From positions 1-20,019 of the forward strand of contig JACPCX010000130.1 of assembly GCA_016184305.1 (NCBI GenBank): a DNA stretch of 20,019 nucleotides, given 5' to 3'. Each line of letters starts with the position of its first letter. The first letter of the stretch is position 1. The DNA is from Candidatus Rokuibacteriota bacterium (GTDB lineage: Bacteria > Methylomirabilota > Methylomirabilia > Rokubacteriales > CSP1-6). This document shows, in pieces, positions 4,722 through 20,019 of this stretch. A program made the position numbers and the translations under genes. Below the pieces are notes generated by a model that saw only the letters and a list, made by a program, of their open reading frames with translations, was not told the origin of the DNA and made no database searches.

Positions 4722-4738
4722 CTGGCATGCGTATTGCC
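4722..4738 (+). promoter_or_regulatory. Putative sigma54 (-24/-12) promoter
   Basis: CTGGCATGCGTATTGCC matches YTGGCACG-N4-TTGCW with exact GG-N10-GC spacing. Lies about 60 nt upstream of the cupredoxin start, and a sigma54 activator is encoded three genes downstream. Confidence 0.75.
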
Positions 4739-5301: not shown

Positions 5302-6966
5302 ATGACGGCCTGCACCGGTCGCCACAGCGCTTGGATACCGGGGGCCGCGCTCGTTCTCGGTTTCCTGGCGCTAGGCCCGTTCGCCGCCTCGTCCGGGGGG
5401 CAGGCGGTCCCGGCAGCGGGAGACCCGCAGCAAGGTGAGTTGCTCTTTCGCCGCTACTGCGCCGTCTGTCATGGGGCTGGCGGCGCAGGGGACGGCCCCA
5501 ATGCGCCGTTCCTCGAAGAGGATCAGCCCCGGGACCTGACCAACTCGCGCTATCTGGGGCGGCTCAGCGACGAGCACCTCGTGCGGGTGATCACGGAGGG
5601 TGGGCAGGCCATCCAGGGATCGCGGTTCATGCCGTCCTGGGGGCGGACGCTCTCCTCCACTCAGATCCGGGACCTCGTCGCCTATGTCCGCAAGCTGGCC
5701 GCGCCGGGCGCTTCTGCTCCGGCAGCGGGACCTTCCGCTGGCGCCATCCTGACGCGGGAGATCGGCTGTCCCTTGTGCCACAAGATCGGCAGCCTCGAGT
5801 CGACGCCGATGGCGCCTGATCTGAGCGCGGAAGGCAGTCGGGTCCAGCGGGCCTGGCTCTTCGCCTTCCTCAAGGCGCCCCGGACGATCCGGCCAGCGGG
5901 GTATCAGCCGCTGTCGAGAGCGCGCATGCCAGACTTCCGGCTTTCGGATGAGGAGGCGGCGAGCCTTGCGGAGTACTTGCTGTCCAGGCGGGACGGACTC
6001 GCCACGGACGGGGTCGAGCCCGTGCCCTCCGCAAACACGATGCTGCAGGGGCGGGACCTCTTCCGGCAGCACGCTTGTCGCGCGTGCCACAAGATGGATG
6101 GCGTGGGCGGCAGGGCGGGACCCGATCTGTCAGCGGTGGCCCAGCGGCTCAAGCCGGGGTGGACGATGCGCTTCATCCAGGACCCGCAGGCCATCGATCC
6201 CCTGGTCCCGATGCCGCATCTCGGCGTCCCGGAGGAGCCGGCACGGGCGATCACGCACTTCCTGTTCGGCGGGGTTCTCCCGCAGCCCGAGGCTCCGCCC
6301 GGCGCCGAGGCGGCAGCCCGGGGCGCGGACCTTTTCCGGGCGTTGGGATGCGCGAGATGCCACGATCGCGAGCGTGCCGAGGTCGCGAGTGGCTTCGCCC
6401 CCGACCTCAGCGGGGCGGGCGACAAGCTCAGGCCAGAGTGGCTCGCGGGATTCCTCAGGCGGCCTGCCACGATACGGCCGTGGCTCGGGGCGCGCATGCC
6501 CGGCTTTCGCCTGGACGAGGCGGAGCTCCGGGCACTCGTCGGGTTCATCGGAGATCTCAAAGACCCGACAGCGGCGCCACTGGCCGCGCAGCGGCAGTTC
6601 GCCGGGACGATCTCGGAGGCGAATGTCCGGGCCGGGCGTCGGCTGGCCTCTCGGGAGTTCCTGTCCTGCTCCTCCTGTCACATCGGCGAGGAGCAGCCGG
6701 AGGGAAATCCGGACGAGTGGGCGCCCGATTTGCGGGTCGCGGGAAGACGGCTCAATCCCGACTGGATCGTCCGCTGGTTTCAGGATCCGCAGCGCCTGAG
6801 CCCCGGCACCAAGATGCCGAACTTCTTCGCGGACGAGCGGTCGGGGCCCGAGGAGATTCTCGACGGGGACGAGGAGCGCCAGATGCTGGCCCTCAGGGAC
6901 TACATCCTGAGTCTTGGCGGCGTTGGCTCGCCGGAGGCCGGTCCCCCCGCTGCCCCGGCCAAGTAG
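5302..6966 (+). CDS. Pentaheme c-type cytochrome built of tandem class I cytochrome c domains
   Basis: 554 aa with a signal peptide; five CxxCH motifs (CAVCH, CPLCH, CRACH, CARCH, CSSCH), each followed by an xMP distal Met (FMP, RMP, PMP, RMP, KMP). Confidence 0.9.
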   Translation: MTACTGRHSAWIPGAALVLGFLALGPFAASSGGQAVPAAGDPQQGELLFRRYCAVCHGAGGAGDGPNAPFLEEDQPRDLTNSRYLGRLSDEHLVRVITEGGQAIQGSRFMPSWGRTLSSTQIRDLVAYVRKLAAPGASAPAAGPSAGAILTREIGCPLCHKIGSLESTPMAPDLSAEGSRVQRAWLFAFLKAPRTIRPAGYQPLSRARMPDFRLSDEEAASLAEYLLSRRDGLATDGVEPVPSANTMLQGRDLFRQHACRACHKMDGVGGRAGPDLSAVAQRLKPGWTMRFIQDPQAIDPLVPMPHLGVPEEPARAITHFLFGGVLPQPEAPPGAEAAARGADLFRALGCARCHDRERAEVASGFAPDLSGAGDKLRPEWLAGFLRRPATIRPWLGARMPGFRLDEAELRALVGFIGDLKDPTAAPLAAQRQFAGTISEANVRAGRRLASREFLSCSSCHIGEEQPEGNPDEWAPDLRVAGRRLNPDWIVRWFQDPQRLSPGTKMPNFFADERSGPEEILDGDEERQMLALRDYILSLGGVGSPEAGPPAAPAK

Positions 6967-7185: not shown

Positions 7186-8688
7186 GTGGGTGAACGGCTC
7201 TTTCAGCGCTTTTCCCTGCTGAGCGCCGGTCTCTGGGTCGGCTTCGCCCTCGTCCTGGGCGGCAGCGTCACCTATGTCGTGGAGGAGAAGATGCTGGAGC
7301 GGGCCACCCTGGCCTCCCTGGACTACTTCAAGAGCCTGGCGCGCTTCATCACGACGGACCAGGAGTTCGTCAGGCTGAAGACGGGGGCGGAGTACGGGGC
7401 GTTCGACCGGCTCATCAGGGAGAACTTCTCCACCACCCACGCGGTGACCATCAAGATCTACGACCGGTCGGGAACCACCGTCTACCACTCGCGGAATCCA
7501 GAGATCGTCGGCCGCGCCTTCCCGGACAACGCCGCGCTCCAGCGGGCGTTCCGCGGCGAGACGGTGATCGGCTTCTCCGACCTCCGGGGGAGTGAGCACC
7601 TGACCGAGCGGCAGGCGGGGTATTCGCGCCTGCTGGAGGTCTACATCCCCATCTTTCTCGAGGGGACGAGCACCATCATCGGGGCGTACGAGATCTACAG
7701 TCCCATTGACCCCTTCTACCAGAAGGTCTGGCCCCTCCGTCTCTCCGTGTGGGGCGCCGTCTTCTTCGGCCTGGCGCTGCTCTACGTGGCCCTCTCGCTG
7801 ACCTTTCGCCGGGCGTCGCGGACCATCGTCGGGCAGAACCTGGCCCTGGAGCGCAGCGCGAGGGAGCTGCGGGAGGCCTACGAGGACCTCAAGCAGGCTC
7901 AGTCCCAGCTCGTCCAGACCGAGAAGCTGGCCTCTGCCGGTCGGCTGGCGGCGGGGATGATCCACGAGATCGGCAACCCGCTGGCTTCTGTCCTCGGGTT
8001 GCTGGACCTCCAGCTCCTGTGCAAGGGGAGCGCCGAGGACCGAGCCGAGTGCCTGGACCGCACCGAGCGACTGGCGGGCGAGATCGCGCGGCTCCGCGGG
8101 CTCCTCCGAGGCCTGCTGGAGTACGCGCGCCCGGGTCCCTCGGAGGCGACCGTGCTGGATCTGAACGAAGTGGTGGAGAAATCGCTGCGGTTCGTCTTCT
8201 CTCAGAGGGACTTTGGAACCCTGACCCTTCGGAAAACGTTGGCGCCGGAGCTTCCCCCTGTGCTGGCCGACGAGTCGCTGCTCCAGCAGGTTCTGGTGAA
8301 CGTTCTCCTGAATGCGGCACAGGCCTCCCCGGCGGGCGGCTCGGTCACGGTGACCACCCGGGCCGGGAACGGCGCCGAGGCCTGGAAGGGCGACCATGCC
8401 GTGGGGCGCGTCTTCCAGCCGGGAGAGCGGACCGTGACGGTTGCGGTCTCGGACGCCGGGCCCGGAATTCCGCGCGAACACCTGGGGCGGATCTTCGAGC
8501 CGTTCTTCTCGACGAAGGGACGGGGAGAAGGGGCGGGACTCGGCCTGGCGATCTGCCACAGCATCATCGAGCTGCTCCACGGCGCTCTGGTCGTGGAGCT
8601 GGCGCCCGGCGGCGGCACCACGCTCCGCATCGTGCTTTCGGCCGCCGTGCCGGTGCCGCTCGCCGCAGAAAGCGCTCGCCATGACTGA
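7186..8688 (+). CDS. Two-component sensor histidine kinase (2 TM, periplasmic sensor domain)
   Basis: GTG start after GGAGGAGG; two TM helices flanking a Cache-like region; LVQTEKLASAGRLAAGMIHEIGNP H-box; N box QVLVNVLLNA; G1 DAGPGI; F box FEPFFSTK; G2 GAGLGL. Confidence 0.95.
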   Translation: MGERLFQRFSLLSAGLWVGFALVLGGSVTYVVEEKMLERATLASLDYFKSLARFITTDQEFVRLKTGAEYGAFDRLIRENFSTTHAVTIKIYDRSGTTVYHSRNPEIVGRAFPDNAALQRAFRGETVIGFSDLRGSEHLTERQAGYSRLLEVYIPIFLEGTSTIIGAYEIYSPIDPFYQKVWPLRLSVWGAVFFGLALLYVALSLTFRRASRTIVGQNLALERSARELREAYEDLKQAQSQLVQTEKLASAGRLAAGMIHEIGNPLASVLGLLDLQLLCKGSAEDRAECLDRTERLAGEIARLRGLLRGLLEYARPGPSEATVLDLNEVVEKSLRFVFSQRDFGTLTLRKTLAPELPPVLADESLLQQVLVNVLLNAAQASPAGGSVTVTTRAGNGAEAWKGDHAVGRVFQPGERTVTVAVSDAGPGIPREHLGRIFEPFFSTKGRGEGAGLGLAICHSIIELLHGALVVELAPGGGTTLRIVLSAAVPVPLAAESARHD

Positions 8689-10069
8689 GGCCCCGGCGCG
8701 CGTGCTCGTCGTCGACGACGAAGAGAACATGGTGCATGTCCTGACCAAGCTCCTCCGGGGCGAGGGGTTCGAGGTCGAGGGCGCTGGGACGGGGGAAGCG
8801 GCCCTCGAGAAGCTGCGGGCCGGACCGTTCGAGCTGGTGCTCACCGATCTGAAGCTGCCCGACACCGACGGGATCGAGATCCTCAAAGCCGCCCGGGAGC
8901 TCCACCCCGAAACCGTGGTGGTTCTCATCACGGCCTTCGGCACGATCGGGTCGGCGATCGAGGCCATGCGGGCGGGCGCCTACGACTACGTGACCAAGCC
9001 GTTCCGGGCCGGCGAGATCCTCCAGGCGGTGGAGAAGGCGTTCGAGCGGGTGCGGCTGAGGCGGGAGGTCGCCCTGCTGCGCCAGGCCGTGAAGGAGCGC
9101 TTCGCGTTCGCGAGCCTGGTCGGCAAGAGCCCGAAGATGCAGGACGTCTATACCCAGATCGAGAAGCTCGCGGCCAGCCGCGGCGCCGTCCTCATCCAGG
9201 GAGAGAGCGGGACGGGCAAAGAGCTGGTGGCCAAGGCGATTCACTTCAATGGCCCGCGGAAATCGGGGCCGTTCGTGGTGATCAACTGCGGGGCCATCCC
9301 CGAAGCCCTCCAGGAGAGCGAGCTCTTCGGCCACGAGCGGGGGGCCTTCACGGGCGCCATCGCGGCCAAGAAGGGGCTCTTCGAGGAGGCGCACGGAGGC
9401 TCGCTCTTCCTGGACGAGGTGGCGGAGATGGCCCCGGGGCTTCAGGCCAAGCTCCTCCGCGTCCTGCAGGACGGGGAGCTCCGGCGTGTGGGGGCCACCA
9501 GGACGCTCCGCGTGGACACCCGTGTCATCGCAGCCACCAACCACGACCTCGCCGCCGAGGCCAGGGAGGGAGCCTTCCGGCAGGATCTCTACTATCGCCT
9601 GAATGTGTTTCCCGTCTTCCTCGCCCCGCTCCGGGAAAGGGCCGAGGATCTCCCCCTGCTCGTCGACCACTTCCTCCAGCGCTTCGCCCGTGAGGGCGGC
9701 CGGCCACCCAAGCGATTCTCCGCCGAGGCGCTCCGGGCGATGGTGGTCTACCCGTGGCCGGGCAACGTGCGCGAGCTGGAGCACGCCGTGGAGCGGGCGG
9801 TGCTCCTGAGCGAAGGGGAGGTGATCGGTCCCGGGGACCTTCCTCCGGAGATCCTGGAGCCCCAAGACGAGCTGACCCTGCCCCTGCCGAACCCGACCGT
9901 GGGATTCAAGGAGACCATGGCGCGTGTGGTTCGCGATGCGGAGGTGAAGCTCATCCGCCGGGCGCTCGCCCAGACGAGCAACAACCGGACGCAGGCGGCC
10001 CGGCTCCTCGGCATCAGCCGGCGCGCCCTGCTCTACAAGCTGAACGAGTACAGCCTCAGGCGTTCCTGA
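8681..10069 (+). CDS. Sigma54-dependent response regulator (NtrC/AtoC family: REC-AAA+-Fis HTH)
   Basis: ATG 8681 overlaps the kinase stop; VLVVDDE, LTDLKLP (phospho-Asp), GESGTGKE, GAFTGA, FLDEV, C-terminal HTH NRTQAARLLGISRRALLYKL. Confidence 0.96.
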   Translation: MTEAPARVLVVDDEENMVHVLTKLLRGEGFEVEGAGTGEAALEKLRAGPFELVLTDLKLPDTDGIEILKAARELHPETVVVLITAFGTIGSAIEAMRAGAYDYVTKPFRAGEILQAVEKAFERVRLRREVALLRQAVKERFAFASLVGKSPKMQDVYTQIEKLAASRGAVLIQGESGTGKELVAKAIHFNGPRKSGPFVVINCGAIPEALQESELFGHERGAFTGAIAAKKGLFEEAHGGSLFLDEVAEMAPGLQAKLLRVLQDGELRRVGATRTLRVDTRVIAATNHDLAAEAREGAFRQDLYYRLNVFPVFLAPLRERAEDLPLLVDHFLQRFAREGGRPPKRFSAEALRAMVVYPWPGNVRELEHAVERAVLLSEGEVIGPGDLPPEILEPQDELTLPLPNPTVGFKETMARVVRDAEVKLIRRALAQTSNNRTQAARLLGISRRALLYKLNEYSLRRS

Positions 10070-10199: not shown

Positions 10200-10625
10200 A
10201 TGAGATTCTTCTCGCAGGAGAGCTTCTATGGGATGGCGGTGATGGTCGCCCTGGCCCGTCATGAGCCGGCGCGCCCGGCGGGAATCGAGGAGATTTCCAG
10301 CGTCCAGGATCTCCCCCGCAGCTTCGTCGCCAAGATCCTCCAGAAGCTGGTTCGCGGCGGCCTCGTGACATCCTCCCGCGGCCGCCAGCGCGGCTACACC
10401 CTGGCGGTCCCCGCCGAACGGATCACGGTCAGGGACATCCTGGAGGTCACCGAGGGAGCCGACTTCTTCCACCGCTGCATGTTCCGCAGGCGCTGCGGCG
10501 ATGAGCCCACCTGCTTCCTTCACGGGATCGGCGCGGCCCTCCGGGCCGACCTCGAGGCGAGGCTCAAGAGCCTGATCCTCGCCGATCTGGCTCGCGGCAA
10601 GGACCTCCAGGGGGCCGTCCGATGA
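10200..10625 (+). CDS. Rrf2-family transcriptional regulator with Fe-S ligand motif
   Basis: 141 aa from ATG 10200; winged HTH signature (FVAKILQKLVRGGLVTSSRGRQRGYTL...ITVRDILEVTEG); C-x5-C-x5-C-x2-H (CMFRRRCGDEPTCFLH). Confidence 0.9.
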   Translation: MRFFSQESFYGMAVMVALARHEPARPAGIEEISSVQDLPRSFVAKILQKLVRGGLVTSSRGRQRGYTLAVPAERITVRDILEVTEGADFFHRCMFRRRCGDEPTCFLHGIGAALRADLEARLKSLILADLARGKDLQGAVR

Positions 10626-10638
10626 AGGAACGGCGCGC

Positions 10639-11544
10639 ATGCTGATCCGATTGCGCCTCGATCCCCGCCTCCTGGAGGAGGTCGTCCAACTCGAGCTCAG
10701 GCGGCGGCAGGAGGGAGGGGACGCGAGTGTCTTCGATGAGTACCATCGCGAGGCCGACTCCCTGTACAAGCGGGCCCCGGAGCACCGGGACGGCGAGTTC
10801 GCCGCGCTCCACCGGCGGCTGTTCCGGAAGGTGGGCTTCGAGGGGCGCATCACCGAGGCCCTCTCGGCGCAGCGCGGGGAATTGGCGGAGCTCGAGTCAC
10901 TCACGTGCCTCCGCACCCTCAGGCCGGAGGACGAGGGCGCCGACCTCGCCGGCCCGGTCGCCCCCGCAACCGGCCGGGCCGCCGTGGTGAGGATCCGCGC
11001 GGCGCGCTTCCTCGCTCTCGACGACCTCGGACGCTTTCTCGATCACGAGCTCGTTCACGTGGGCGATCTGCTGAGCGAGGCCTTCGGCCACGACCCCGGG
11101 TCCCTCACCGCCATCTCGCCGCACCGCCGCCGCCTGGTCCAGGAGCGCTACCGCGCCGCGTGGGGGACATGCGTGGACGGGCGGCTCAGCCGGCACGGGA
11201 GGCGCTCGCTCGCCGGGCGAGGGGAGCACCGCGAGGCGCTCCACCGCTGCTTCCCGGCCCTGTCTGACCTCGAGCTGGACGGGCTGCTGGATCGGCTGTG
11301 GAACGACGAGAGGCCGACCCACGCGCGGCTCCTGGCTGTGGCTGTGGGGCGCGGGCCGCGCGAGCCCCATCAGCCTGGGGCGCCCTGCCCGCTCTGCGGC
11401 TTCCCGACTCACGACTGGACGGATGTGACAGACGATGCGCTGATCCGCGCGATCCACCTGGACGTGCCCGACTGGGAGCCCGATCACGGGCTCTGCGAGC
11501 GCTGCTTCGAGATGTACGAGCTCAGATCACTGACACAGGCCTGA
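10639..11544 (+). CDS. Hypothetical protein with HExxH motif and C-terminal CxxC...CxxC
   Basis: 301 aa, packed tightly between the Rrf2 gene and nxrA; FLDHELVHV, CPLC and CERC motifs. Confidence 0.75.
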   Translation: MLIRLRLDPRLLEEVVQLELRRRQEGGDASVFDEYHREADSLYKRAPEHRDGEFAALHRRLFRKVGFEGRITEALSAQRGELAELESLTCLRTLRPEDEGADLAGPVAPATGRAAVVRIRAARFLALDDLGRFLDHELVHVGDLLSEAFGHDPGSLTAISPHRRRLVQERYRAAWGTCVDGRLSRHGRRSLAGRGEHREALHRCFPALSDLELDGLLDRLWNDERPTHARLLAVAVGRGPREPHQPGAPCPLCGFPTHDWTDVTDDALIRAIHLDVPDWEPDHGLCERCFEMYELRSLTQA

Positions 11545-11555
11545 AGGAGGCACTC

Positions 11556-14500
11556 ATGGACGTAAGTCGGCGCGACTTCCTGAAGACGGGGCTCACCGCG
11601 GGTGCCGTGCTGGGGTGGAGCCAGCCGACCCTGGCGCTGGCGGCCCTCGCCCCGGCAGTCGAGGTGGGCAATCCCCTGGAGGTCTACCCGGCGCGCGACT
11701 GGGAGAAGGTGTACCGCGACCAGTACCGCTACGACTCGTCCTTCACGTGGGTCTGCTCGCCCAATTGCACCCACGAGTGCCGGCTGCGGGCCTTCGTGCG
11801 CAACGGCGTCTTCCTCCGGAGCGAGCAGAACTACGACTCGCACAAGGTCGGCGACATGATGGGCAACACGGCCACTCCCTCGTGGAACCCGCGCGGCTGC
11901 CTCAACGGCTTCACCTTCCAGCGCCGCGTCTACGGGCCGTACCGGCTCCGGTACCCGATGATCCGCAAGGGCTGGAAGCAGTGGGCGGACGACGGCTTTC
12001 CGGAGCTCACCGCCGAGACCAAGACCAAGTACAAGTTCGACGCGCGCGGGCAGGACGAACTGCTCCGGGCCACATGGGACGAGGCCTATACCTACGCCGC
12101 CAAGGGAATGATGGCGATCGCCAAGCGCTACAGCGGGGATGAGGGCAAGAAGCGGCTCCTGGCCCAGGGCTACCCCGAGGAGATGTTCACCCACTGGGAC
12201 GGGGCCGGCACCCGCACCTTCAAGTGCCGGGGCGGGATGGGGCTCCTCGGCGTCATCGGGAAATACGGCATGTACCGCTTCGCCAACACCCTGGCGCTGC
12301 TCGACACCCACGTGCGCGGCGTGGGGCCGGACAAGGCCCGGGGCGGACGGAACTGGTCCAACTACACCTGGCACGGCGACCAGGCGCCGGGGCAACCCTT
12401 CGTCCACGGGCTGCAGGCCTCGGATGTGGACTTCAACGAGTTGCGCTTCGCCAAGCTCCACATCGGGATCGGCAAGAATCTCGTGGAGAACAAGCGGGCC
12501 GACAACCACTACTTCATGGAATTGATGGAGCGCGGCGCCAAGATCGTCTGCATCGTGCCGGAGTACAGCCCGCCCGCCAGCAAGGCGGACTACTGGATCC
12601 CGGTGCGGCCCAACTCCGACACGGCGCTCCTGCTGGGCCTCTCCCGCATCCTCATCGACGAGAAGTGGTACGACGCGCCGTACGTGAAGCGCTTCACCGA
12701 CATGCCGCTGCTCGTGCGGACGGACACGCTCAAGCGGCTCAAGCCGGAGGAGATCATTCCCGGCTACACGCAGCCGGACATCAGCCGGGGAGCCAGCATG
12801 ACCCGCCATGGCCTCACCCCCGAGTACCGGAAGAGGGTGGGGGACTTCGTGGTGTGGGACGCGAAGACGAACGCGCCCCGGGCCATCACCCGCGACGACT
12901 TGGGCGACCGGATGACCGAGAAGGGCATCGACCCGGTCCTCGATGGGCGCTTCACCGTGAAGACCGCGGACGGCAAGCAGGTCGAGGTGATGCCGCTCTT
13001 CGAGGCCTACAAGATCCACCTCAAGGACTACGACCTCGACACGGTCCACGAGATCACCCACGCCCCGAAGGACCTGATCCGGCGCCTGGCCAAGGACATC
13101 GCCACCATCAAGCCGGTGGCCATCCACATCGGCGAGGGGATCAACCACTGGTTCCACGCCACCCAGGTCAACCGGGCCACCTACCTGCCGCTCATGCTCA
13201 CCGGGAACGTGGGCGTCATGGGCTCGGGCTCCCACACCTGGGCCGGGAACTACAAGGCCGCGCTCTTCCAGGGCTCGGAGGAGACGGGGCCGGGCTTCAA
13301 GGGGTGGGTCGCCGAGGACCCCTTCAACCCGAACCTCGACCCGGCGGCCGACGGCAAGACCATCCGCGAGCGCGGCTACGCCTCCGAAGAGGAGGTCGCC
13401 TACTGGGCCCACGGCGACAAGCCGCTCATCGTCAACACGCCCAAGTACGGCCGCAAGGTCTTCACGGGCACGACCCACATGCCCACCCCCACCAAGGTCA
13501 TGTGGTTCACCAACGTGAACCTCATCAACAATGCCAAGTGGGTCTACGAGCTGATCAAGAACATCAACCCGAACGTCGAGCTGATCATGTCCACCGACAT
13601 CGAGATGACGGCCTCCTGCGAGTACGCCGACATCGTGCTGGCGGCCAACTCGTGGGTGGAGATGGAGCGCTACGAGGTCACGGGGTCCTGCTCGAACCCG
13701 TTCCTGCAGATCTGGAAGGGCGGGATCAAGCCCATCTACGACACGCGGGACGATCAGCTGATCCTGGCCCAGATGGCGACCAAGCTGGGCGAGCTGCTCA
13801 ACGACCGCCGCTTCGCCGACTACTGGAAGTTCTCGCTCGAGGGCAAGACCGAGGTCTACATCCAGCGGCTGCTGGACTCCTCGACCACCGCGCGCGGTTA
13901 CAAGGTCTCCGACATCCTGGCCGGCAAGTACGGCGAGCCCGGGGTGGCGCTCTTCCTCTTCCGCACCTATCCGCGCGAGCCCTTCTGGGAGCAGATCAAG
14001 GAGTCGCTGCCGTTCTTCACGCCGACGGGGCGGCTGCAGGCCTACAACGACGAGCCCGAGATCATCCAGTACGGGGAGAACTTCATCGTCCACAGAGAGG
14101 GCCCGGAGGCCACGCCGTACCTGCCCAACGCCATCGTCTCCACCAACCCGCTGATCAGGCCCGACGACTACGGCATCCCGCGGGACCACGTGGGCTGGGA
14201 GGAGCGCACCGTCCGCAACCTGAAGCTGCCCTGGGCGGAGGTGAAGGCGACCCAGAACCCGCTCTGGGCCAGGGGCTACAAGTTCTTCTGCCTCACCCCC
14301 AAGACGCGGCATGCGACGCACTCCCAGTGGCAGGTGACCGACTGGCACCTCATCTGGAACAACCAGTTCGGCGACCCGTACCGCATGGACAAGCGATCCC
14401 CCGGCATCGGCGAGCACACCCTGCACATCAACCCGCAGGCGGCGAAGGACCTCGAGATCAACGACGGCGACTACGTCTACGTGGACGCCAACCCGGCGGA

Positions 14501-15008
14501 CCGGCCCTATATCGGCTGGAAGCCCAACGACGCCTTCTACAAGGTCACGCGACTCATGCTGCGGGCGAAGTACAACCCGGCCTACCCCTACAACGTGGTC
14601 ATGATGAAGCACGCGCCCTTCATCGCGACGGAGCGCAGCGTGAAGGCCCACGAGAGCCGCCCCGACGGGCGGGCGCTGTCGGCCGGCACCGGGTACCAGT
14701 CCTCCTTCCGTTACGGCTCCCAGCAGTCCATCACGCGCTCCTGGCTCATGCCCATGCATCAGCTCGACAGCCTCTTCCACAAGAAGAAGGCGCACCAGAG
14801 CTTCGTGTGGGGCTTCGAGGGCGACAACCACGGCGTCAACACCGTGCCCAAGGAGACGCTGGTGAAGGTCGCCAAGGCCGAGGATGGGGGCATAGGCGGC
14901 AAGGGGGTCTGGGCCCCCGCCACCACCGGGTTCACCCCGGGCAAGGAGAGCGACTTCATGAAGCGCTACCTGGCGGGCGACGTCTCGCCCGCGAAGCCCA
15001 AGGAATAG
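11556..15008 (+). CDS. nxrA: Periplasmic nitrite oxidoreductase / nitrate reductase alpha subunit (Mo-bisPGD, Nitrospira/anammox-type)
   Basis: SD AAGGAGG then ATG 11556; Tat motif SRRDFLK; WEKVYRDQYRYDSSFTWVCSPN; FS0 motif C-x3-C-x3-C-x39-C; NWSNYTWHGDQAPG containing the Mo-ligand Asp; C-terminal TGYQSSFRYGSQQS and NTVPKETLVK; 1150 aa. Confidence 0.93.
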   Translation: MDVSRRDFLKTGLTAGAVLGWSQPTLALAALAPAVEVGNPLEVYPARDWEKVYRDQYRYDSSFTWVCSPNCTHECRLRAFVRNGVFLRSEQNYDSHKVGDMMGNTATPSWNPRGCLNGFTFQRRVYGPYRLRYPMIRKGWKQWADDGFPELTAETKTKYKFDARGQDELLRATWDEAYTYAAKGMMAIAKRYSGDEGKKRLLAQGYPEEMFTHWDGAGTRTFKCRGGMGLLGVIGKYGMYRFANTLALLDTHVRGVGPDKARGGRNWSNYTWHGDQAPGQPFVHGLQASDVDFNELRFAKLHIGIGKNLVENKRADNHYFMELMERGAKIVCIVPEYSPPASKADYWIPVRPNSDTALLLGLSRILIDEKWYDAPYVKRFTDMPLLVRTDTLKRLKPEEIIPGYTQPDISRGASMTRHGLTPEYRKRVGDFVVWDAKTNAPRAITRDDLGDRMTEKGIDPVLDGRFTVKTADGKQVEVMPLFEAYKIHLKDYDLDTVHEITHAPKDLIRRLAKDIATIKPVAIHIGEGINHWFHATQVNRATYLPLMLTGNVGVMGSGSHTWAGNYKAALFQGSEETGPGFKGWVAEDPFNPNLDPAADGKTIRERGYASEEEVAYWAHGDKPLIVNTPKYGRKVFTGTTHMPTPTKVMWFTNVNLINNAKWVYELIKNINPNVELIMSTDIEMTASCEYADIVLAANSWVEMERYEVTGSCSNPFLQIWKGGIKPIYDTRDDQLILAQMATKLGELLNDRRFADYWKFSLEGKTEVYIQRLLDSSTTARGYKVSDILAGKYGEPGVALFLFRTYPREPFWEQIKESLPFFTPTGRLQAYNDEPEIIQYGENFIVHREGPEATPYLPNAIVSTNPLIRPDDYGIPRDHVGWEERTVRNLKLPWAEVKATQNPLWARGYKFFCLTPKTRHATHSQWQVTDWHLIWNNQFGDPYRMDKRSPGIGEHTLHINPQAAKDLEINDGDYVYVDANPADRPYIGWKPNDAFYKVTRLMLRAKYNPAYPYNVVMMKHAPFIATERSVKAHESRPDGRALSAGTGYQSSFRYGSQQSITRSWLMPMHQLDSLFHKKKAHQSFVWGFEGDNHGVNTVPKETLVKVAKAEDGGIGGKGVWAPATTGFTPGKESDFMKRYLAGDVSPAKPKE

Positions 15009-15016
15009 AGGCGCTC

Positions 15017-15400
15017 ATGGCCGAGAAGGAGTTCGAGCCTGGCGACCCCATGGGGCTGGTCGGGATCGGCGTACCCGAGGGGGAGCCCGACCTCATGGCG
15101 GAGTGCCTCGTGGAGGAGTACGTGCGCCTCGGCACCTCCGACGCCCAGCTGCTGGCCATCTTCACGAACCCGTTCTTCGCCGGGGCGTACGCGCTCTACC
15201 GGGCCCGGGGCGAGGACCACCTCAAGTCAGTGATCGAGCGGGTGCGCGCCCAGTGGGGCCGGCCCCGCTTCACCACGACCGAAGTGGGAGGCCCCGACAT
15301 GGCCCCCCACGCCCCCCAACGCTCGGAAGCGCCCCGGCAAAGCCGCGGCGCTCCTCGGCGCCGCGATTCGTTCACTGACTCTGAATCCACGGAGGCCTGA
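15017..15400 (+). CDS. Small hypothetical protein between the alpha and beta subunit genes
   Basis: ATG 15017 after GAGG, 8 nt past the nxrA stop; 127 aa (EFEPGDPMGLVG...MAECLVEEYVRLG...FTNPFFAG); ends 3 nt before nxrB. Confidence 0.75.
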   Translation: MAEKEFEPGDPMGLVGIGVPEGEPDLMAECLVEEYVRLGTSDAQLLAIFTNPFFAGAYALYRARGEDHLKSVIERVRAQWGRPRFTTTEVGGPDMAPHAPQRSEAPRQSRGAPRRRDSFTDSESTEA

Positions 15401-15403
15401 AAC

Positions 15404-16670
15404 ATGCCGCAGGTCTACAACTGGCAGCTCGGGCGGAAGATGGAGTACCCGTACGAGGAGCGCCATCCGAAGTCGCAGTTCGCCTTCGTCTTCAACACCA
15501 ACCGCTGCATCGCCTGCCAGACCTGCACCATGGCGTGCAAGTCCACCTGGACCTTCGGCAAGGGCCAGGAGGCCATGTGGTGGAATAACGTGGAGACCAA
15601 GCCGTACGGCGGCTACCCGCAGTTCTGGGACATCAAGGCCCTCAAGCTGCTGGACGACGCCCACCAGAAGGCCGGCGCGACCATGGGCTGGGAGACCGGG
15701 AAGCCGGGCCCGTCCAAGCCGTACGGCGAGTACTCGGGGATGACGCTCTTCGAGGCGGCCCGGCAGCGCTACGGCCCCGAGGGGCATCAGCGTGTGCTGG
15801 GCTACCTCCCCACCGACGAGGAGTGGCGCTTCCCCAACATCTACGAGGACACCTCCACCGCCTACCAGGGCGGCCGGCTCGGCATCAGCGCCGAGGGCGC
15901 GAGCCTGCCGGAGCACAAGAGCTGGTTCTTCTACCTCCAGCGACTCTGCAACCACTGCACCTACCCCGCCTGCCTCGCCGCGTGCCCGCGCAAGGCCATC
16001 TACAAGCGGCCGGAGGACGGCATCGTCCTCATCGACCAGGAGCGCTGCCGAGGCTACCGGGCCTGCGTCGAAGCCTGTCCCTACAAGAAGCCCATGTACC
16101 GCCCGACGACCCGCGTCAGCGAGAAGTGCGTGGCCTGCTACCCGCGCATCGAGGGGAAGGATCCACTCTCCGAGGGTGTCCCCATGGAGACCCGCTGCAT
16201 GGCGTGCTGCGTCGGAAAGATCCGGATGCAGGGGCTCGTCAAGACCAACGCCGACGGCTCCTGGGTCGAGGACCGGCAGCATCCGCTCTACTACATGGTC
16301 AAGATCGAGAAGGTGGCGCTGCCGCTCTACCCCCAGTTCGGCACCGAGCCCAACGGCTACTACATCCCGCCGCGCTGGGTCCCGCGCCCCTACCTCCGGC
16401 AGATGTTCGGACGAGGCGATCGACAAGTACACGGCGCCCTCGCGGGAGCTGCTGGCCGTCCTCCAGCTCTTCCGCAGCACCCAGAAGATGCTCTTCCGCT
16501 ACGAGATCAAGCAGGGCCCGAAGGTGTACGAGACGACCGTCAACGGCAGGCCCTGGGCCATGTACAACGACACGATCATCGGCTACGACGCCAGGGGGCG
16601 CGAGGCGGTGCGCGTCACCGTCGAGGAGCCCGTACACGTCCGCCCGGCGCAGTACGCCAACTCCATCTGA
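15404..16670 (+). CDS. nxrB: Nitrite oxidoreductase / nitrate reductase beta (Fe-S) subunit, apparent frameshift at about 16410
   Basis: N-terminus MPQVYNWQLGRKMEYPYEE; Cys groups CIACQTCTMAC, CNHCTYPACLAAC, CRGYRACVEAC, CVACYP...CMACC. The homologous C-terminus (EAIDKYTAPSRELLAVLQLF...YNDTIIGY) continues in the +1 frame to TGA 16668-16670. Confidence 0.9.
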
Positions 16671-16680
16671 GGCCCATGCC

Positions 16681-17436
16681 ATGACGGTCGAGACCCAGGC
16701 GCCGGCGGAAGACGCGGCGCGCGCCCTCGTCAGGAGCCAGATCTACCGGACGCTCGCGCTGGCCTTCCGCCATCCGGACGCAGACAACGCGGCCGCCCTG
16801 GCGGAGGTGACCCCGGCGCTCGCCGGGGCTTCCGAGGGACGCATGCCGGAGCCGGTCCGGGAGGCGCTGTCGGGTCTGGAGGCGGCGCTCCAGGGCGTGA
16901 CGCTGGAGAGCCTGCAGGAGCAGTACGTCGAGACGTTCGGGCACGTGACGGTGCCCGACTGCCCGCTGTACGAGACGGCCTGCGGGATGGGGGACCCCTT
17001 CCTCCAGCCGCAGACGCTCGCCGACCTGGCCGGCTTTTACCGGGCCTTCGGGCTCGAGATGGCCGGGGACGCGCGCGAGCGCGCCGATCACCTGACCGTC
17101 GAGCTGGAGTTCATGCACTACCTCGCCTATCGCGAGGCCTACGCGCTCGAGCATCACGGGGAGGAGCGGACCGCTGTCGTCCGGGACGCCGAGCGCCGCT
17201 TCCTCGAGGCCCACCTGGGGCGCTGGGCGCCGGTGCTGGCCCGGGCGGTGTCCGCGCGCGCCGAGGGCGCGCTCGGGGCCGCCGCGCGACTGCTCGAGCG
17301 CCTGCTCGCCCACGAGGTGGAGCACTGGGGGATCTCCCCGGCCCCCGTGGTGGTCGAGGGGGCGCCGCTGATGATTCCACCGACCGACGACGACCCTGTT
17401 GACGAGGACGACGACTTCACGGGGAGAGAGCCATGA
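16681..17436 (+). CDS. TorD/DmsD-family molybdoenzyme maturation chaperone
   Basis: 251 aa from ATG 16681; PLYET, LAGFYRAFG, ERADHLTVELEFM, FLEAHLGRW motifs; position after the beta subunit. Confidence 0.9.
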   Translation: MTVETQAPAEDAARALVRSQIYRTLALAFRHPDADNAAALAEVTPALAGASEGRMPEPVREALSGLEAALQGVTLESLQEQYVETFGHVTVPDCPLYETACGMGDPFLQPQTLADLAGFYRAFGLEMAGDARERADHLTVELEFMHYLAYREAYALEHHGEERTAVVRDAERRFLEAHLGRWAPVLARAVSARAEGALGAAARLLERLLAHEVEHWGISPAPVVVEGAPLMIPPTDDDPVDEDDDFTGREP

Positions 17437-19016
17437 CACGGACCGTCCGCCTCGCTGTTTTCTCGTTCATCCTCGCCGCGGGCTGGATCCTGCCGCTGCT
17501 GGCCGGCCCAGCGGATGCGGCGCCGCGCGGCGACGCGAAGAAGGGGGAGGCGCTGTACGCCCAGAAGTGCGCCGTCTGCCACGGCGTGACGGGCAAGGGG
17601 GACGGCGTGGCCGAGTTCGTCCTCTTCCCCAAGCCCCGGGATCTCACGAGCGGCAAGTTCAAGATCCGCTCGACGTCGAGCCTGCCCACCGACGACGACG
17701 TCTTCCGGGTCGTCACCCAGGGCATCCCGGGCACCGCCATGCCGTCCTGGACGGTGCTGAGCGATGTCCAGCGCTGGGACCTCGTGGCCTACGTCAAGAG
17801 CCTGTCGCCCGTCTTCGCCCAGCAGAAGGCGCTCAAGCCAGGGCTGATCCCGCCGACCCCGAAGCTGACGCCGGCGCTCCTGGAGACGGGCAAGAAGTTC
17901 TACGCGGAGGCCGAGTGCCTCAAGTGCCACGGCGCCACCGGCAAGGGCGACGGTGAGTCGGCCGACACGCTCAAGGACGAGTGGGGCTACCCCATCGTCC
18001 CCTACGACTTCACCATCGCGGGACGGATGAAGGGCGGCCACTCCGTGCGCGACGTCTACCGGACGCTGCTCAACGGCATCGGCGGCACGCCCATGCCCTC
18101 CTTCGCCGACTCGCTCTCGCCCGAGGAGACCTGGGGGCTCGCCTACTACGTGATGTCGCTGGCGAAGGGCCCGCAGAAGCAGGCGCCGGCCGAGGTGAGC
18201 GCCGTGCGCGTGAAGCGGGTTGCCGGCGACCTGCCGGCCGACCCCGTAGCCCCGGTCTGGACCCGCGCCGCCCTCCAGTCAGTCCCGCTCCGGACGCTGT
18301 GGCTCAGGCCCAAGCAGGCGACGCAGGTGCGGGTGGCGGCGCTCCACAACGGCAAGGAGATCGGCTTCCTTCTCGAGTGGGACGACCCGCTCGCCGACCA
18401 GGCCGCGCTCGGCGTGGACCAGTTCCGTGATGCCGCGGCGGTCCAGCTTCCGGTGCAGCCCACGCAGCTCCACGGGGCGGGCCATCCGGAGCCCAGCTAC
18501 GTCATGGGAGAGCCCGGGAATCCCGTGAACATCTGGCACTGGAAGGCGGACTGGCAGCTCGACGTGGCCCGATACCGCGACCGCGAGGATCGCTACGCCG
18601 CCGTGGCCGTCGACGACATGCCCTTCGTGCGTGGCGTCCGCTCGTCCGACCCGCAGGCCGCCGTCGCGCCCGCCGATACCCACGATCCCCTCTTCCTCAC
18701 CGCGCGAGCCGTCAACAATCCGATGGCGCGGCCCCGTCGCTCCGCGGTGGAGAACATCAACGCCGCGGGCGTCGGCACCATCACCTCCCAGGCCGCCGAG
18801 GCGCAGATCATCAGGGGCGAGGGCCGCTGGGCCGACGGCAAGTGGCGCGTCGTCATGGTGCGCAGCCTCAGGACCGAGAACCCTCGTGATGCGCAGCTCC
18901 AGCCCGGTCAGGACTCGGCCGTGGCCTTCGCCGTCTGGGATGGCGCCCAGCGCGACCGCGACGGCCAGAAGGCCGTCTCGGTATGGCAGCGGCTCCTGCT
19001 CGAGGCCGGCAAGTAG
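17433..19016 (+). CDS. Candidate gamma subunit (NxrC/EbdC-like heme b domain) fused to an N-terminal diheme cytochrome c
   Basis: ATGA overlap with the chaperone; Sec signal peptide; CAVCH and CLKCH; EB_dh-type domain with YVMG...VNIWHWKAD (Met) and AVWDG...GQKAVS (Lys); no C-terminal TM helix. Confidence 0.85.
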   Translation: MTRTVRLAVFSFILAAGWILPLLAGPADAAPRGDAKKGEALYAQKCAVCHGVTGKGDGVAEFVLFPKPRDLTSGKFKIRSTSSLPTDDDVFRVVTQGIPGTAMPSWTVLSDVQRWDLVAYVKSLSPVFAQQKALKPGLIPPTPKLTPALLETGKKFYAEAECLKCHGATGKGDGESADTLKDEWGYPIVPYDFTIAGRMKGGHSVRDVYRTLLNGIGGTPMPSFADSLSPEETWGLAYYVMSLAKGPQKQAPAEVSAVRVKRVAGDLPADPVAPVWTRAALQSVPLRTLWLRPKQATQVRVAALHNGKEIGFLLEWDDPLADQAALGVDQFRDAAAVQLPVQPTQLHGAGHPEPSYVMGEPGNPVNIWHWKADWQLDVARYRDREDRYAAVAVDDMPFVRGVRSSDPQAAVAPADTHDPLFLTARAVNNPMARPRRSAVENINAAGVGTITSQAAEAQIIRGEGRWADGKWRVVMVRSLRTENPRDAQLQPGQDSAVAFAVWDGAQRDRDGQKAVSVWQRLLLEAGK

Positions 19017-19173: not shown

Positions 19174-20019
19174 ATGTACCGACACATCTGCGTTCCGGTG
19201 GATAACTCGGAGCATGCCAATCGGGCCATCGACTTGGCGGTGGATCTCGGCCAGGCGTTCGGGGCGAAGCTGACGGGGGTCCACGTCTACGCGGGTCGCC
19301 TCCACGATTCGCGCTTCAAGCAGATGGAGTACACGCTGCCGGAGCGGTACCGGCAGGAGACGGAGCTGGAGCGGCAGCGACAGGTCCACGACTCGCTGAT
19401 CCGGATGGGGCTCCGGCTGATCTCCGACTCCTACCTCGACGCGATCGCGCGCCGGGCCGAGGCGGCCGGGCTCGCGCTGGAGCGCAAGACCTTCGACGGC
19501 AAGCATCACAAGGTCCTGCTGGAGGACGCGCAGCGCTCCGACTACGACCTCGTGGTGATGGGCGCCCTCGGCATGGGCGCGGTCAAGGACAGCCTGCTCG
19601 GGTCGGTCGCCGAGCGCTTCGTCCGGGCGACGACGAAGGACACCCTCGTGGTCAAGACGCTGGACCCGGAGGAGGGGCGGCGCGGGGCCATCGTGGTGGG
19701 GCTGGACGGCAGCCCCCAGTCCTTCCACGGGCTCAGGCTCGGGATCGCGCTGGGCCGGGCGCTGGGCCGTCCGGTGGAGTTGGTGGCCGTCTACGACCCG
19801 TATCTCCACTACGCGCTGTTCAAGAGCATCGTGGGGGTGCTCTCGGCCGAGGCCGCGCAGGTCTTCCGCTTCACGGAGCAGGAGCGGTTGCATGAGGAGA
19901 TCATCGACAGCGGGCTCGCGCGCATCTACCAGTCGCACCTGGACATCGGCCGCCGGCTGGCCGAGGCGGACGGGGTGGAGGTCACGACGACGCTCTTGGC
20001 CGGCAAGTGCTTCGAGAAG
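19174..20019 (+). CDS. Universal stress protein, tandem USP domains (3'-truncated)
   Basis: Read by hand (absent from the ORF track because it has no stop in the window): MYRHICVPVDNSEHANRAIDLA...YDLVVMGALGMGAVKDSLLGSVAERFVR..., then a second domain IVVGLDGSPQSF. SD GGAGGG upstream. Confidence 0.92.
   Translation, partial: MYRHICVPVDNSEHANRAIDLAVDLGQAFGAKLTGVHVYAGRLHDSRFKQMEYTLPERYRQETELERQRQVHDSLIRMGLRLISDSYLDAIARRAEAAGLALERKTFDGKHHKVLLEDAQRSDYDLVVMGALGMGAVKDSLLGSVAERFVRATTKDTLVVKTLDPEEGRRGAIVVGLDGSPQSFHGLRLGIALGRALGRPVELVAVYDPYLHYALFKSIVGVLSAEAAQVFRFTEQERLHEEIIDSGLARIYQSHLDIGRRLAEADGVEVTTTLLAGKCFEK

Follow-up and report, generated by a model that had tools for sequence, protein, structure and literature searches.

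The nitrite oxidoreductase of the anammox bacterium Kuenenia stuttgartiensis, NXR-ABC (kustd1700/1703/1704), has a solved structure (PDB 7B04; Chicano et al. 2021, as given in PMC8387239). It is a Tat-exported, soluble-type enzyme that lacks NarI. According to the gene inventory of Lücker et al. 2013 (PMC3578206), the extended NXR set of Kuenenia, Nitrospira and Nitrospina gracilis comprises a cytochrome-c-bearing "alternative NxrC" (alt_NxrC), a TorD-like chaperone, cytochromes c, a zinc-finger protein, cupredoxins and a bd-like oxidase. Two type II DMSO reductases, ethylbenzene dehydrogenase (2IVF) and perchlorate reductase (4YDD), follow the same alpha-beta-gamma-plus-chaperone plan and have a periplasmic, soluble EB_dh-type haem-b gamma. 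NarGHI of E. coli (PDB 1Q16) shares the superfamily, the cofactor chain, the Asp ligand to Mo and a NarJ-type chaperone, but is oriented towards the cytoplasm and lacks a Tat signal. NXR genes of Rokubacteria have been mentioned at inventory level (PMC5712423), as a preliminary description of the present DNA had also stated.

The window, i.e. the whole stretch of 20,019 nucleotides analysed here, proved to be an entire 20-kb contig (C65) of a metagenome-assembled genome (MAG) of 70% GC. The MAG is 88.8% complete, which applies to all genome-wide negatives below. Pfam matches were obtained for 13 of 31 candidate ORFs and for none of the 14 ORFs on the minus strand; all genes reported here lie on the plus strand. 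GC content per kb is 0.65-0.72 (genome 0.70); the window is thus very GC-rich, as noted before, yet this reflects the host phylum only. The nearest public relative is a Ca. Rokubacteria MAG (L001; 95% NxrA identity), which supports an uncultured Rokubacteria/Methylomirabilota-type host, not an anammox bacterium. Judging from sequence, we put at about 0.8 the probability that the enzyme encoded here, in such an organism, is a periplasmic nitrite:nitrate oxidoreductase and belongs to the Nitrospira/anammox (NXR/pNAR) clade.

Subunits and their relatives

The gene nxrA (11556..15008) codes for a molybdopterin catalytic subunit of 1150 aa, identified by its match to 7B04_B and by trees. Its N-terminus, MDVSRRDFLK, agrees with the Tat consensus, although the Tat profile PF10518 scores 19.8 bits, under the cut-off of 22.7; the HGDQAPG motif occupies residues 273-279. 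NxrA aligns end to end with Kuenenia NXR-A (residues 2-1143, 1937.6 bits), whereas scores to PcrA (206 bits), EbdA (168) and NarG (120) are far lower and the NCBIfam scores for the ethylbenzene dehydrogenase and perchlorate reductase families stay far under cut-offs. In the numbering of Kuenenia NXR-A (PMC8387239), NxrA has Asn70, Cys67/Cys71/Cys75 and the Mo ligand Asp275, of which Asn70 and Asp275 are shared with the Kuenenia enzyme. The FS0 motif is therefore all-Cys, in contrast to Kuenenia with Asp at position 71.

Identity of NxrA amounts to 71-72% with Brocadiaceae (anammox) loci and to just 55-56% with Nitrospira/Nitrospirales loci. Trees were obtained by quick LG+G4 searches that included no cultured type strains, with NarG as a long-branched outgroup. 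NxrA falls inside a group of 63 rows (SH-aLRT 97) together with NxrA of Nitrospira and Brocadiaceae, and within it is one of the 12 members of a subclade in which FS0 position 71 is Cys, not Asp; the sister of this subclade differed between two trees. Sequence comparison thus supports assignment of the alpha subunit to the periplasmic NXR clade, as the preliminary description had proposed. Its Tat-exported alpha subunit with HGDQAPG, beta subunit, chaperone and cytochrome-fused gamma were all recovered. Like its Kuenenia counterpart, the enzyme is of the soluble type.

The beta subunit gene nxrB (15404..16670; Fer4_11, TIGR03478) specifies a four-cluster Fe-S protein, and all four cysteine groups are present. 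NxrB has no signal peptide and is therefore presumably co-exported with NxrA. It is followed by a gene for a TorD/NarJ-type maturation chaperone (16681..17436; PF02613, E 1.3e-22; TIGR03482, E 9e-30), which would serve cofactor insertion.

The gamma subunit (17433..19016, 527 aa) combines a Sec signal, a dihaem cytochrome c module and an NxrC-type haem-b domain (two cytochrome c domains plus EB_dh). Residues 31-247 match 6H5L_B (E 2.3e-55), and residues 299-524 match Kuenenia NXR-C, 7B04_C (E 2.2e-33). The Kuenenia haem-b ligands Met155 and Lys305 have their aligned counterparts in Met358 and Lys513. The haem-b domain is thus homologous in both systems with ligands retained, but the N-terminal dihaem module is missing from kustd1704.

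Electron carriers, regulators and direction of the reaction

Scanning of the three plus-strand frames gave exactly 11 CxxCH motifs, distributed as 1+3+5+2 over four genes; at least 11 had been claimed earlier. The single motif lies in a cytochrome c gene (2..631; PF00034, E 6e-10) that is cut at its 5' end by the contig start and open from base 2. Three belong to a membrane-anchored "alternative NxrC"-type protein (915..3281, 788 aa; PF13442, PF00034, PF09459), a second gamma-like gene that had been overlooked. Three N-terminal membrane helices and one C-terminal helix are predicted for it (hydropathy segments 10-28, 45-63, 95-113 and 759-777). Its dihaem module matches PDB 6H5L_B (E 4.8e-55), and its EB_dh-like domain has Leu and Met at the positions of gamma Met358 and Lys513, so that canonical haem-b ligands are absent. 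Five motifs are found in an exported pentahaem cytochrome c of 554 aa with a hydrophobic N-terminus (5302..6966; PF00034, E 5e-40, four stretches), and the remaining two in gamma. The cupredoxin noted earlier is an exported protein (4795..5280; PF13473, E 2e-9; hydrophobic N-terminus 10-28).

The window accordingly resembles the extended NXR set in its alt_NxrC-type protein (three c-haem motifs, haem-b-like domain, membrane helices), dihaem-c/haem-b gamma, chaperone, mono- and multihaem cytochromes c, cupredoxin and zinc-finger ORF. In contrast to that set, it holds one cupredoxin, not two, and no bd-like oxidase, of which the genome has solely a 47-position fragment containing a stop. An NxrC with haem b alone was not found in the genome; besides the two genes of the window, only a fragment of contig C173 matched EB_dh. 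Between the carriers lie a small protein with three predicted membrane helices (3310..3741; start codon read off the sequence; zero Pfam families at E<=0.001) and a cytoplasmic protein of three PCP_red domains (3734..4489; PF08369, E 9.8e-29, three stretches), the latter with no tblastn match in any of 80 related loci.

Regulatory genes precede the operon. They encode a membrane sensor histidine kinase (7186..8688; HisKA, HATPase_c; hydropathy segments 11-29 and 181-199), an NtrC-type sigma-54-dependent response regulator (8681..10069; Response_reg, Sigma54_activat E 2.8e-69, HTH_8) and a regulator of the Rrf2 family that carries the cluster motif C-x5-C-x6-C (10200..10625; PF02082, E 3e-29). 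Of 64 loci with enough upstream DNA, 14 have an Rrf2 homologue no more than 2.5 kb upstream of nxrA. Ahead of the cupredoxin gene, 57 nt from its start codon, stands a sigma-54-like -24/-12 site, TGGCAT-N5-TTGC (4723..4737, plus strand). This site is the sole match at up to one mismatch, but chance alone would give 0.78 such sites and at least one turns up in 52 of 100 shuffles, so this candidate is a lead only. Downstream, a tandem universal stress protein (19174..20019; PF00582, E 7.5e-31, two stretches) is cut at its 3' end by the contig end.

Electrons would run between the Mo centre and a periplasmic high-potential pool via FS0-FS4, haem b and the two fused c-haems. The pentahaem cytochrome, cupredoxin and membrane-anchored alt-NxrC-type protein may make up this pool, which might link to cytochrome c oxidase or else lead back to a quinol:cytochrome c complex. 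By analogy, the enzyme type is reversible: Kuenenia NXR oxidises nitrite as well as reducing nitrate in vitro (PMC8387239). We lean slightly towards nitrite oxidation over nitrate respiration; a mixotroph could use it as an additional source of electrons or to detoxify nitrite. The reasons are that NarI was not found in the genome and no quinol-oxidising module in the window, that the partners are all c-haem or copper carriers, and that the genome encodes an A-type haem-copper oxidase (541 bits). In a nitrate-bearing groundwater heterotroph, the enzyme could equally act as nitrate reductase fed by cytochrome c.

That in practice the enzyme works as a respiratory nitrate reductase of the periplasm seems to us possible, at clearly less than even odds. 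Under anoxia, quinol electrons would then pass through a bc-type or ACIII-type complex to the cytochrome c/cupredoxin pool, the tri-haem gamma and nitrate. Rates reported for Kuenenia NXR in vitro, 1.5 µmol min-1 mg-1 for nitrate reduction versus 61 nmol min-1 mg-1 for nitrite oxidation (PMC8387239), agree with this, as do the reported nitrate reducers Thermogutta and Ca. Methanoperedens placed in the same major clade by PMC10732223, and the Fe-S Rrf2 regulator and universal stress proteins flanking the operon. Autotrophy markers point the same way: neither RuBisCO large subunit nor CdhC was found in the 88.8%-complete MAG, so that the host does not qualify as a classical autotrophic nitrite oxidiser (in the ACL marker search, the control itself was silent). 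On the other hand, the window showed no recognisable partner of the quinol dehydrogenase kind (NarI, NapC/NrfH type). NarI (PF02665) had no match in the window, as noted before, nor in the 88.8%-complete genome. The ~89%-complete MAG yielded no bona fide NirK (best 85 bits versus a cut-off of 296) and weak cytochrome-d1 matches only, and therefore no downstream denitrification step. Met/Lys haem-b ligation is moreover described as the high-potential type (PMC8387239). Of the host traits that the preliminary description had named for checking, a terminal oxidase was thus recovered, while carbon fixation markers and NirK were not.

The frameshift in nxrB

The deposited nxrB, in a departure that had escaped notice, lacks 11 bp after position 16409, seen as an 11-base gap against the 97%-identical L001. 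The frame shifts 89 codons short of the gene end, and the true C-terminal ~83 codons of NxrB lie in the +1 frame (16421-16670). The intact NxrB of L001 (residues 2-425) aligns end to end with Kuenenia NXR-B (2-410, 629.9 bits).

Taken at face value, the gap against this close relative and the shifted frame would mean a decaying pseudogene cluster in this strain, with NxrB truncated and the enzyme not made. We consider this improbable. The remaining genes are all intact, with no stops. Among the contig pieces listed from public runs of the same population, one from run X1, free of mismatches over 244 bases, has the 11 additional letters at the deletion site with a depth of ~11, similar to adjoining exact-match contigs (9-14); loose ends in runs X3 and X5 continue with the same letters. 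Short G-rich repeats bracket the deletion in 70%-GC DNA, probably a typical assembly trouble spot. Most probably, the frameshift reflects misassembly or a minor variant.

A substrate other than nitrite/nitrate (chlorate, perchlorate, selenate, or a hydrocarbon as in ethylbenzene dehydrogenase) is suggested by the substrate diversity of type II DMSO reductases and by Cys71 in place of the Asp71 of the one solved NXR, but is very improbable given the ~72% identity to anammox NxrA, the retained Asn70 and Asp275, and the low PcrA and EbdA scores.

The cassette in other loci

Relatives of the enzyme are encoded in 622 of 628 pattern-matched genome stretches, hence in at least 622 loci, and at least 2384 of 8000 scored candidate proteins match at E<=1e-50. 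The common layout of the clade consists of zinc-finger ORF, nxrA, small ORF, nxrB and chaperone, with a dihaem-c/haem-b gamma. Two of these ORFs had been overlooked in the window.

The first (10639..11544, 301 codons) lies upstream of nxrA. The conserved, NXR-associated protein that it encodes is cytoplasmic and carries an HExxH…D motif as well as a 4-Cys zinc ribbon at its C-terminus. The protein has no Pfam or NCBIfam family, and complete homologous ORFs are present in 51 of 80 loci. E137, D143, C250, C253, C286 and C289 are invariant among 37 rows, and H140 is conserved in at least 90% of them. The AF2 model (pLDDT 92.3) finds its best fold matches among zincins (Z 5.0-5.6); its predicted fold is zincin-like. 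In the NXR gene set, it corresponds to the "putative zinc finger protein".

The second (15017..15400, 127 codons) is located between nxrA and nxrB, unlike in Kuenenia; no match to it was detected in 12 of 12 Brocadiaceae-type loci looked at. It has no signal peptide and no Pfam family at E<=1. Clean homologues occur in at least 46 of 80 loci (48 were listed by script; over-extended L054 and stop-containing L063 were discounted). The AF2 model displays four helices (pLDDT >90 for residues 21-80), and fold comparison gave nothing below E 2.2. Conservation extends over about 85 residues; the 40-residue tail, present in the window and L001 only, traverses an interspersed GC-rich hairpin repeat that fills the spacer before nxrB (15285..15400). 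At this repeat (bin 15252-15335) depth jumps from ~10-250 to 400-118,000 in four metagenome runs, and many loose contig ends fall at 15285-15337. A second copy was located at C184:2080-2161 (84% over 83 nt), and the predicted hairpin has -39.5 kcal/mol.

Where enough downstream DNA was available, the order nxrA-small ORF-nxrB-chaperone was found in 32 of 42 loci and a gene order identical to that of the window in 7 of 42; full-length fused gamma occurs in 45 of 80 fetched loci. The architecture, earlier regarded as non-canonical, is common in the clade, and its accessory set is the one listed in PMC3578206. Specific to this copy are the Cys71 NxrA subclade, the 11-bp deletion in nxrB and the HExxH…D neighbour with its predicted fold. 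This layout is typical of a cassette found across many uncultured phyla, so the operon is one ordinary copy of that cassette, which transfer has spread over many phyla.

Identity and spread of the locus

The window of 20,019 bases is the full contig C65 of a metagenome-assembled genome (MAG) of 3.2 Mb in 239 contigs (88.8% completeness, 1.9% contamination, 70% GC). All recognisable genes lie on its plus strand; Pfam matches were obtained for 13 of 31 candidate ORFs and for none of the 14 minus-strand ORFs. The central part consists of genes for an Rrf2 regulator (10200-10625) and a 301-aa protein without assigned family (10639-11544), followed by nxrA (11556-15008), a 127-codon ORF (15017-15400), nxrB (15404-16670), a TorD/NarJ-type chaperone (16681-17436) and a dihaem-c/haem-b gamma subunit (17433-19016). 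A tandem Usp gene extends from 19174 to the contig end.

NxrA matches Kuenenia NXR-A (7B04_B) with 1937.6 bits, aligned over residues 2-1143, and the next structures score far lower (PcrA 206, EbdA 168 and NarG 120 bits). Identity reaches 95% to the locus of another Ca. Rokubacteria MAG (L001), 71-72% to Brocadiaceae loci and 55-56% to seven Nitrospira/Nitrospirales loci, which were retrieved via an nxrB primer. A phylogenetic tree of 80 rows was constructed (quick IQ-TREE, LG+G4, cultured type strains left out, E. coli NarG as outgroup). Window NxrA falls into a clade of 12 rows (SH-aLRT 99), nested in a 63-row group (SH-aLRT 97) that contains seven Nitrospira/Nitrospirales and nine Brocadiaceae-type rows; both E. 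coli NarG and a paralogue that the same genome encodes (42% identity) stay outside this group. Bit scores and group membership thus bear out the preliminary description, which had assigned the alpha subunit to the periplasmic NXR clade of Nitrospira and anammox bacteria, and a position outside that clade can be set aside because NxrA nests with rows of both kinds. In an earlier 67-row tree the 12-row clade was sister to a clade containing Brocadiaceae/anammox sequences (SH-aLRT 97). This fork collapsed after the seven Nitrospira-type rows and others had been added, and since resolution was lost in the larger tree, no sister group is claimed.

Identity with NarGHI is rejected by the Tat-type signal, by a TIGR01580 score of 147 bits where the cut-off is 1084 and by the lack of any PF02665 (NarI) match in the window, as described before. 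NarG-type and NarI genes were likewise not found in the 88.8%-complete genome.

The paralogue mentioned above is encoded on contig C144 (4727-10642), where the contig end cuts the gene. It represents a second, divergent NXR-type alpha with 665 bits to Kuenenia NXR-A and Asp at the FS0 iron-sulphur cluster. It is preceded by genes for a DsbD-type cytochrome biogenesis protein and a two-domain multicopper oxidase, the latter scoring 85 bits to the NirK model, under the cut-off.

Relatives are encoded in at least 622 of 628 pattern-matched stretches from species-representative genomes, and at least 2384 of 8000 scored candidates are proteins matching at E<=1e-50. They occur in Planctomycetota, Methylomirabilota, Acidobacteriota, Chloroflexota, Myxococcota, Binatota and other phyla. 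Gene layout was counted in 80 fetched loci, 42 of which have 5.5 kb or more of sequence downstream of nxrA. The order nxrA-small ORF-nxrB-chaperone was observed in 32 of these 42 and a full-length fused gamma, on either side, in 31; the exact gene order of the window recurs in seven. Gamma homologues with at least 85% query coverage are present in 45 of the 80 loci.

The architecture, previously regarded as non-canonical, is therefore common, and its accessory genes resemble a set listed by Lücker et al. 2013 (PMC3578206) as shared by Kuenenia, Nitrospira and Nitrospina. As given there, this set comprises an alternative NxrC (a haem-b domain together with 1-3 c-haems), along with a TorD-like chaperone, a putative zinc-finger protein and a bd-like oxidase; the remaining members are cupredoxins and cytochromes c with one or two haems. 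Rokubacteria nitrite oxidoreductases are mentioned by Becraft et al. 2017 (PMC5712423), 665 Nitrospira-clade periplasmic NxrA/NarG sequences from public genomes are reported in the Microflora Danica paper (PMC12823411), and Planctomycetota genes of such type were proposed as putative NXR by Suarez et al. 2023 (PMC10732223). For Rokubacteria, the article texts searched give inventory-level mentions rather than a description of the locus. We conclude that the locus is real, essentially complete and correctly recognised as NXR-type, and that it is a member of a known and widespread kind whose architecture is not new.

Cofactor sites and electron-transfer subunits

Tat export of the alpha subunit, proposed from the sequence, agrees with its N-terminus (MDVSRRDFLKTG, MDVSRRDFLK), which on inspection matches the twin-arginine motif; the PF10518 score there is 19.8 bits, under its cut-off of 22.7. 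The N-terminus of NxrB (MPQVYNWQLG) contains neither a hydrophobic segment nor a signal, and that of the gamma subunit is hydrophobic and Sec-type. The HGDQAPG motif noticed earlier occupies NxrA residues 273-279. Both the Mo ligand Asp275 within it and the substrate-side Asn70 (in CSPNC) are conserved, and numbering around these two residues is gap-free against 7B04_B.

The FS0 motif is present as C67-x3-C71-x3-C75, the Kuenenia counterpart of Cys71 being Asp71. According to Chicano et al. 2021 (PMC8387239), FS0 ligands depend on lineage and are either 3Cys/1Asp or 3Cys/1His; an all-Cys cluster is not mentioned in their account of FS0. Among the best 120 database homologues, position 71 is Cys in 53 and Asp in 64, and the motif was not found in three. 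In the 80-row tree, Cys71 is found in all 12 rows of the window clade (Rokubacteria, non-anammox Planctomycetota, Archangiaceae and allies) and in one Dehalococcoidia row elsewhere. All remaining 66 NXR-type rows have Asp71, and this distribution requires 2-3 changes on the tree.

The cytochrome-fused character of the gamma-like subunit was also confirmed. Its dihaem c module matches chain B of PDB 6H5L, described as a Kuenenia HAO structure (E 2.3e-55), and its haem-b domain matches Kuenenia NXR-C (7B04_C, E 2.2e-33); in this alignment Met358 and Lys513 fall on the Kuenenia haem-b ligands Met155 and Lys305. A second gamma-like protein, membrane-anchored and of trihaem-c/EB_dh-like type (915-3281), has the same dihaem module (6H5L chain B, E 4.8e-55), a third CxxCH and four predicted membrane helices. 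We take 6H5L chain B to be the dihaem partner of a Kuenenia HAO-like enzyme. As Leu and Met occupy the positions of the gamma haem-b ligands Met and Lys in the second protein, its EB_dh-like domain may bind haem in another manner or lack haem altogether. A bd-like oxidase gene was not found beside this alternative NxrC-type gene, where the contig begins only about 900 bases upstream.

Elsewhere in the genome, a locus on contig C173 (7488-11234; L089) encodes a multihaem cytochrome (c7/NrfB-like) and a membrane Fe-S protein of Fer4_5 type with 760 aa. It also contains a three-domain cytochrome c ORF whose first ~50 residues correspond to the final part of the EB_dh model.

Further carriers are encoded in the upstream part of the window by a cytochrome c gene cut at its 5' end by the contig start (2-631), a pentahaem cytochrome c gene (5302-6966) and, as first noticed, a nearby cupredoxin gene (4795-5280). 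At least 11 CxxCH motifs had been reported; we count exactly 11, distributed 1+3+5+2 over four genes, which is the total in the three plus frames. A gene whose small product is predicted to have three membrane helices (3310-3741) is also found in this region. It is followed by one for a cytoplasmic triple PCP_red (PF08369) protein (3734-4489), which stands among respiratory cytochrome genes; in protochlorophyllide reductase, PCP_red forms the C-terminal domain of subunit B. No homologue of the triple PCP_red protein was detected in the 80 related NXR loci.

The nxrB reading frame and accessory proteins

Compared with the 97%-identical L001 sequence (2095 of 2166 aligned positions), deposited nxrB lacks 11 bases after position 16409, so that the frame is shifted 89 codons before its end. 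The true C-terminus is legible in the +1 frame (16421-16670), and the four Cys groups for clusters FS1-FS4 are all located 5' of the frameshift. Intact NxrB of L001 (425 aa) aligns end-to-end with Kuenenia NXR-B (630 bits), and 54 of the 80 loci contain complete NxrB ORFs of 403-430 aa. Logan contigs from four public metagenome runs (X1-X3 from one study, X5 from another) were compared with the window over 15000-17500; the run that covers the window best may derive from the source sample. Among the contigs listed, the sole piece bridging the site (X1, 255 letters, no mismatches) contains 11 extra letters there; its depth of 11.1 is comparable to that of exact-match neighbours (9-14). Loose ends at 16410 in X3 (eight contigs) and X5 (five contigs), again among those listed, continue with the missing letters. 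The deletion more likely arose in assembly or belongs to a minor variant than represents a loss fixed in the population. The deposited frameshift should be treated with caution, as it is probably not real.

The small ORF preceding nxrB (15017-15400) comprises about 85 conserved residues and has no signal peptide. Its model displays four helices, with pLDDT exceeding 90 at residues 21-80; no Pfam family was found at E<=1, and the fold search gave nothing better than E 2.2. An apparent fusion with NxrB in one related locus (L054) was ruled out by a stop codon in between. The 40-residue tail occurs only in the window and L001 and is read-through of an interspersed repeat. This GC-rich hairpin repeat fills 15285-15400, the spacer before nxrB, and a second copy lies on contig C184 of the same genome (2080-2161). 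In the four metagenome runs, contig depth climbs from tens-hundreds to 400-118,000 in the repeat bin.

Complete homologues of the 301-aa ORF are found in 51 of 80 loci, and it is located immediately 5' of nxrA in 31 of the 70 loci with room for it, anammox loci included. No Pfam or NCBIfam family corresponds to this protein, the putative 'zinc finger' neighbour of nxrA. The 37 aligned members show no variation at R50, F54, E137, D143, W175 and Cys 250, 253, 286 and 289, and at least 90% of them retain H140, giving a signature of HExxH…D motif plus C4 ribbon. The AF2 model is confident (pLDDT 92.3, pTM 0.79) and retrieved a best Foldseek match of E 0.074. In an unfiltered structural scan (VIA), zincin-type folds rank top (Wss1, ERAP1, tricorn F3, YbeY, Spartan) at Z 5.0-5.6, values which the tool itself describes as common. 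For the C-terminal 54 residues, a resemblance to ZAD-type zinc ribbons was noted (Z 4.0-4.3), and ESM Atlas returned unnamed clusters along with SprT-like proteins at 0.80. Because the structural matches are weak, the zincin reading leans mainly on the invariant motif. The protein may be a zincin-like metal-binding protein, a fold weakly supported by the model, and might act in NXR maturation or regulation.

Regulation, physiology and direction of the reaction

The Rrf2 regulator contains a C-x5-C-x6-C motif and is kept upstream in 14 of 64 loci. Control by this adjoining, putatively Fe-S-type Rrf2 is plausible, and so is control by the sigma-54 two-component pair predicted from the genes for a histidine kinase (7186-8688) and an NtrC-type sigma-54 activator (8681-10069). 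A sigma-54-like sequence, TGGCAT-N5-TTGC, is located at 4723-4737, 57 nt 5' of the cupredoxin start codon, with the NtrC-type activator gene on the same contig. The scan returned 10 matches at <=2 mismatches (15.6 expected) and one at <=1 (0.78 expected). The candidate site is hence non-significant by count and suggestive by position, and may serve as a lead only.

The genome encodes haem-copper oxidases of A-type and further ones, with COX1-family matches on contigs C149 (541 bits) and C123 (216 bits). Judged by family, their products would include a terminal oxidase able to accept electrons from cytochrome c. A bd-oxidase match amounts to a fragment of 47 positions that contains a TAG stop. 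NirK was not detected above cut-off in the genome, and cytochrome-d1-like matches are weak. RuBisCO large subunit (PF00016) and CdhC (PF03598) gave no matches in the 88.8%-complete MAG; the Citrate_bind search for ACL gave none either, with its control likewise silent. As 11% of the genome is missing, these absences are provisional.

Every partner protein in the window carries c-haem or copper, and a quinol-oxidising module was not found within it. Such a composition agrees with nitrite electrons passing to an oxidase, and also with nitrate reduction fed by cytochrome c. Kuenenia NXR performs nitrite oxidation as well as nitrate reduction in vitro (PMC8387239), and direction is not deducible from sequence according to Suarez et al. 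2023 (PMC10732223). Since the partners fit both directions and the Kuenenia enzyme catalyses both, we regard the window enzyme as a reversible NXR-type enzyme and word its direction with reserve. We lean, at roughly 55%, to nitrite oxidation, which would provide a mixotroph with a supplementary electron source or with detoxification.

A more specific proposal is that the all-Cys-FS0 subclade represents a functionally tuned NXR, whose tri-haem gamma would hand nitrite electrons directly to the pool of cytochrome c and cupredoxin in aerobic mixotrophs. We consider this unlikely. If it were true, the FS0 Asp-to-Cys change would shift the redox bias of the enzyme, and Rokubacteria abundant in soil and groundwater would be unrecognised non-autotrophic nitrite oxidisers.

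The window copy itself adds little that is new. Three details deserve to be retained, all of them testable: the subclade with an all-Cys FS0, the HExxH/zinc-ribbon signature that marks the conserved neighbour, and the caution over nxrB, whose frameshift is a probable assembly error. Nitrite oxidation is usually ascribed to a few nitrifier genera. Hundreds of uncultured species carry NXR-type cassettes similar to that of the window, among them Rokubacteria that are frequent in groundwater and soil. If these cassettes reduce nitrate, surveys that count nxrA as nitrification would over-estimate the process; if they oxidise nitrite, their hosts would be unrecognised contributors to nitrate production.
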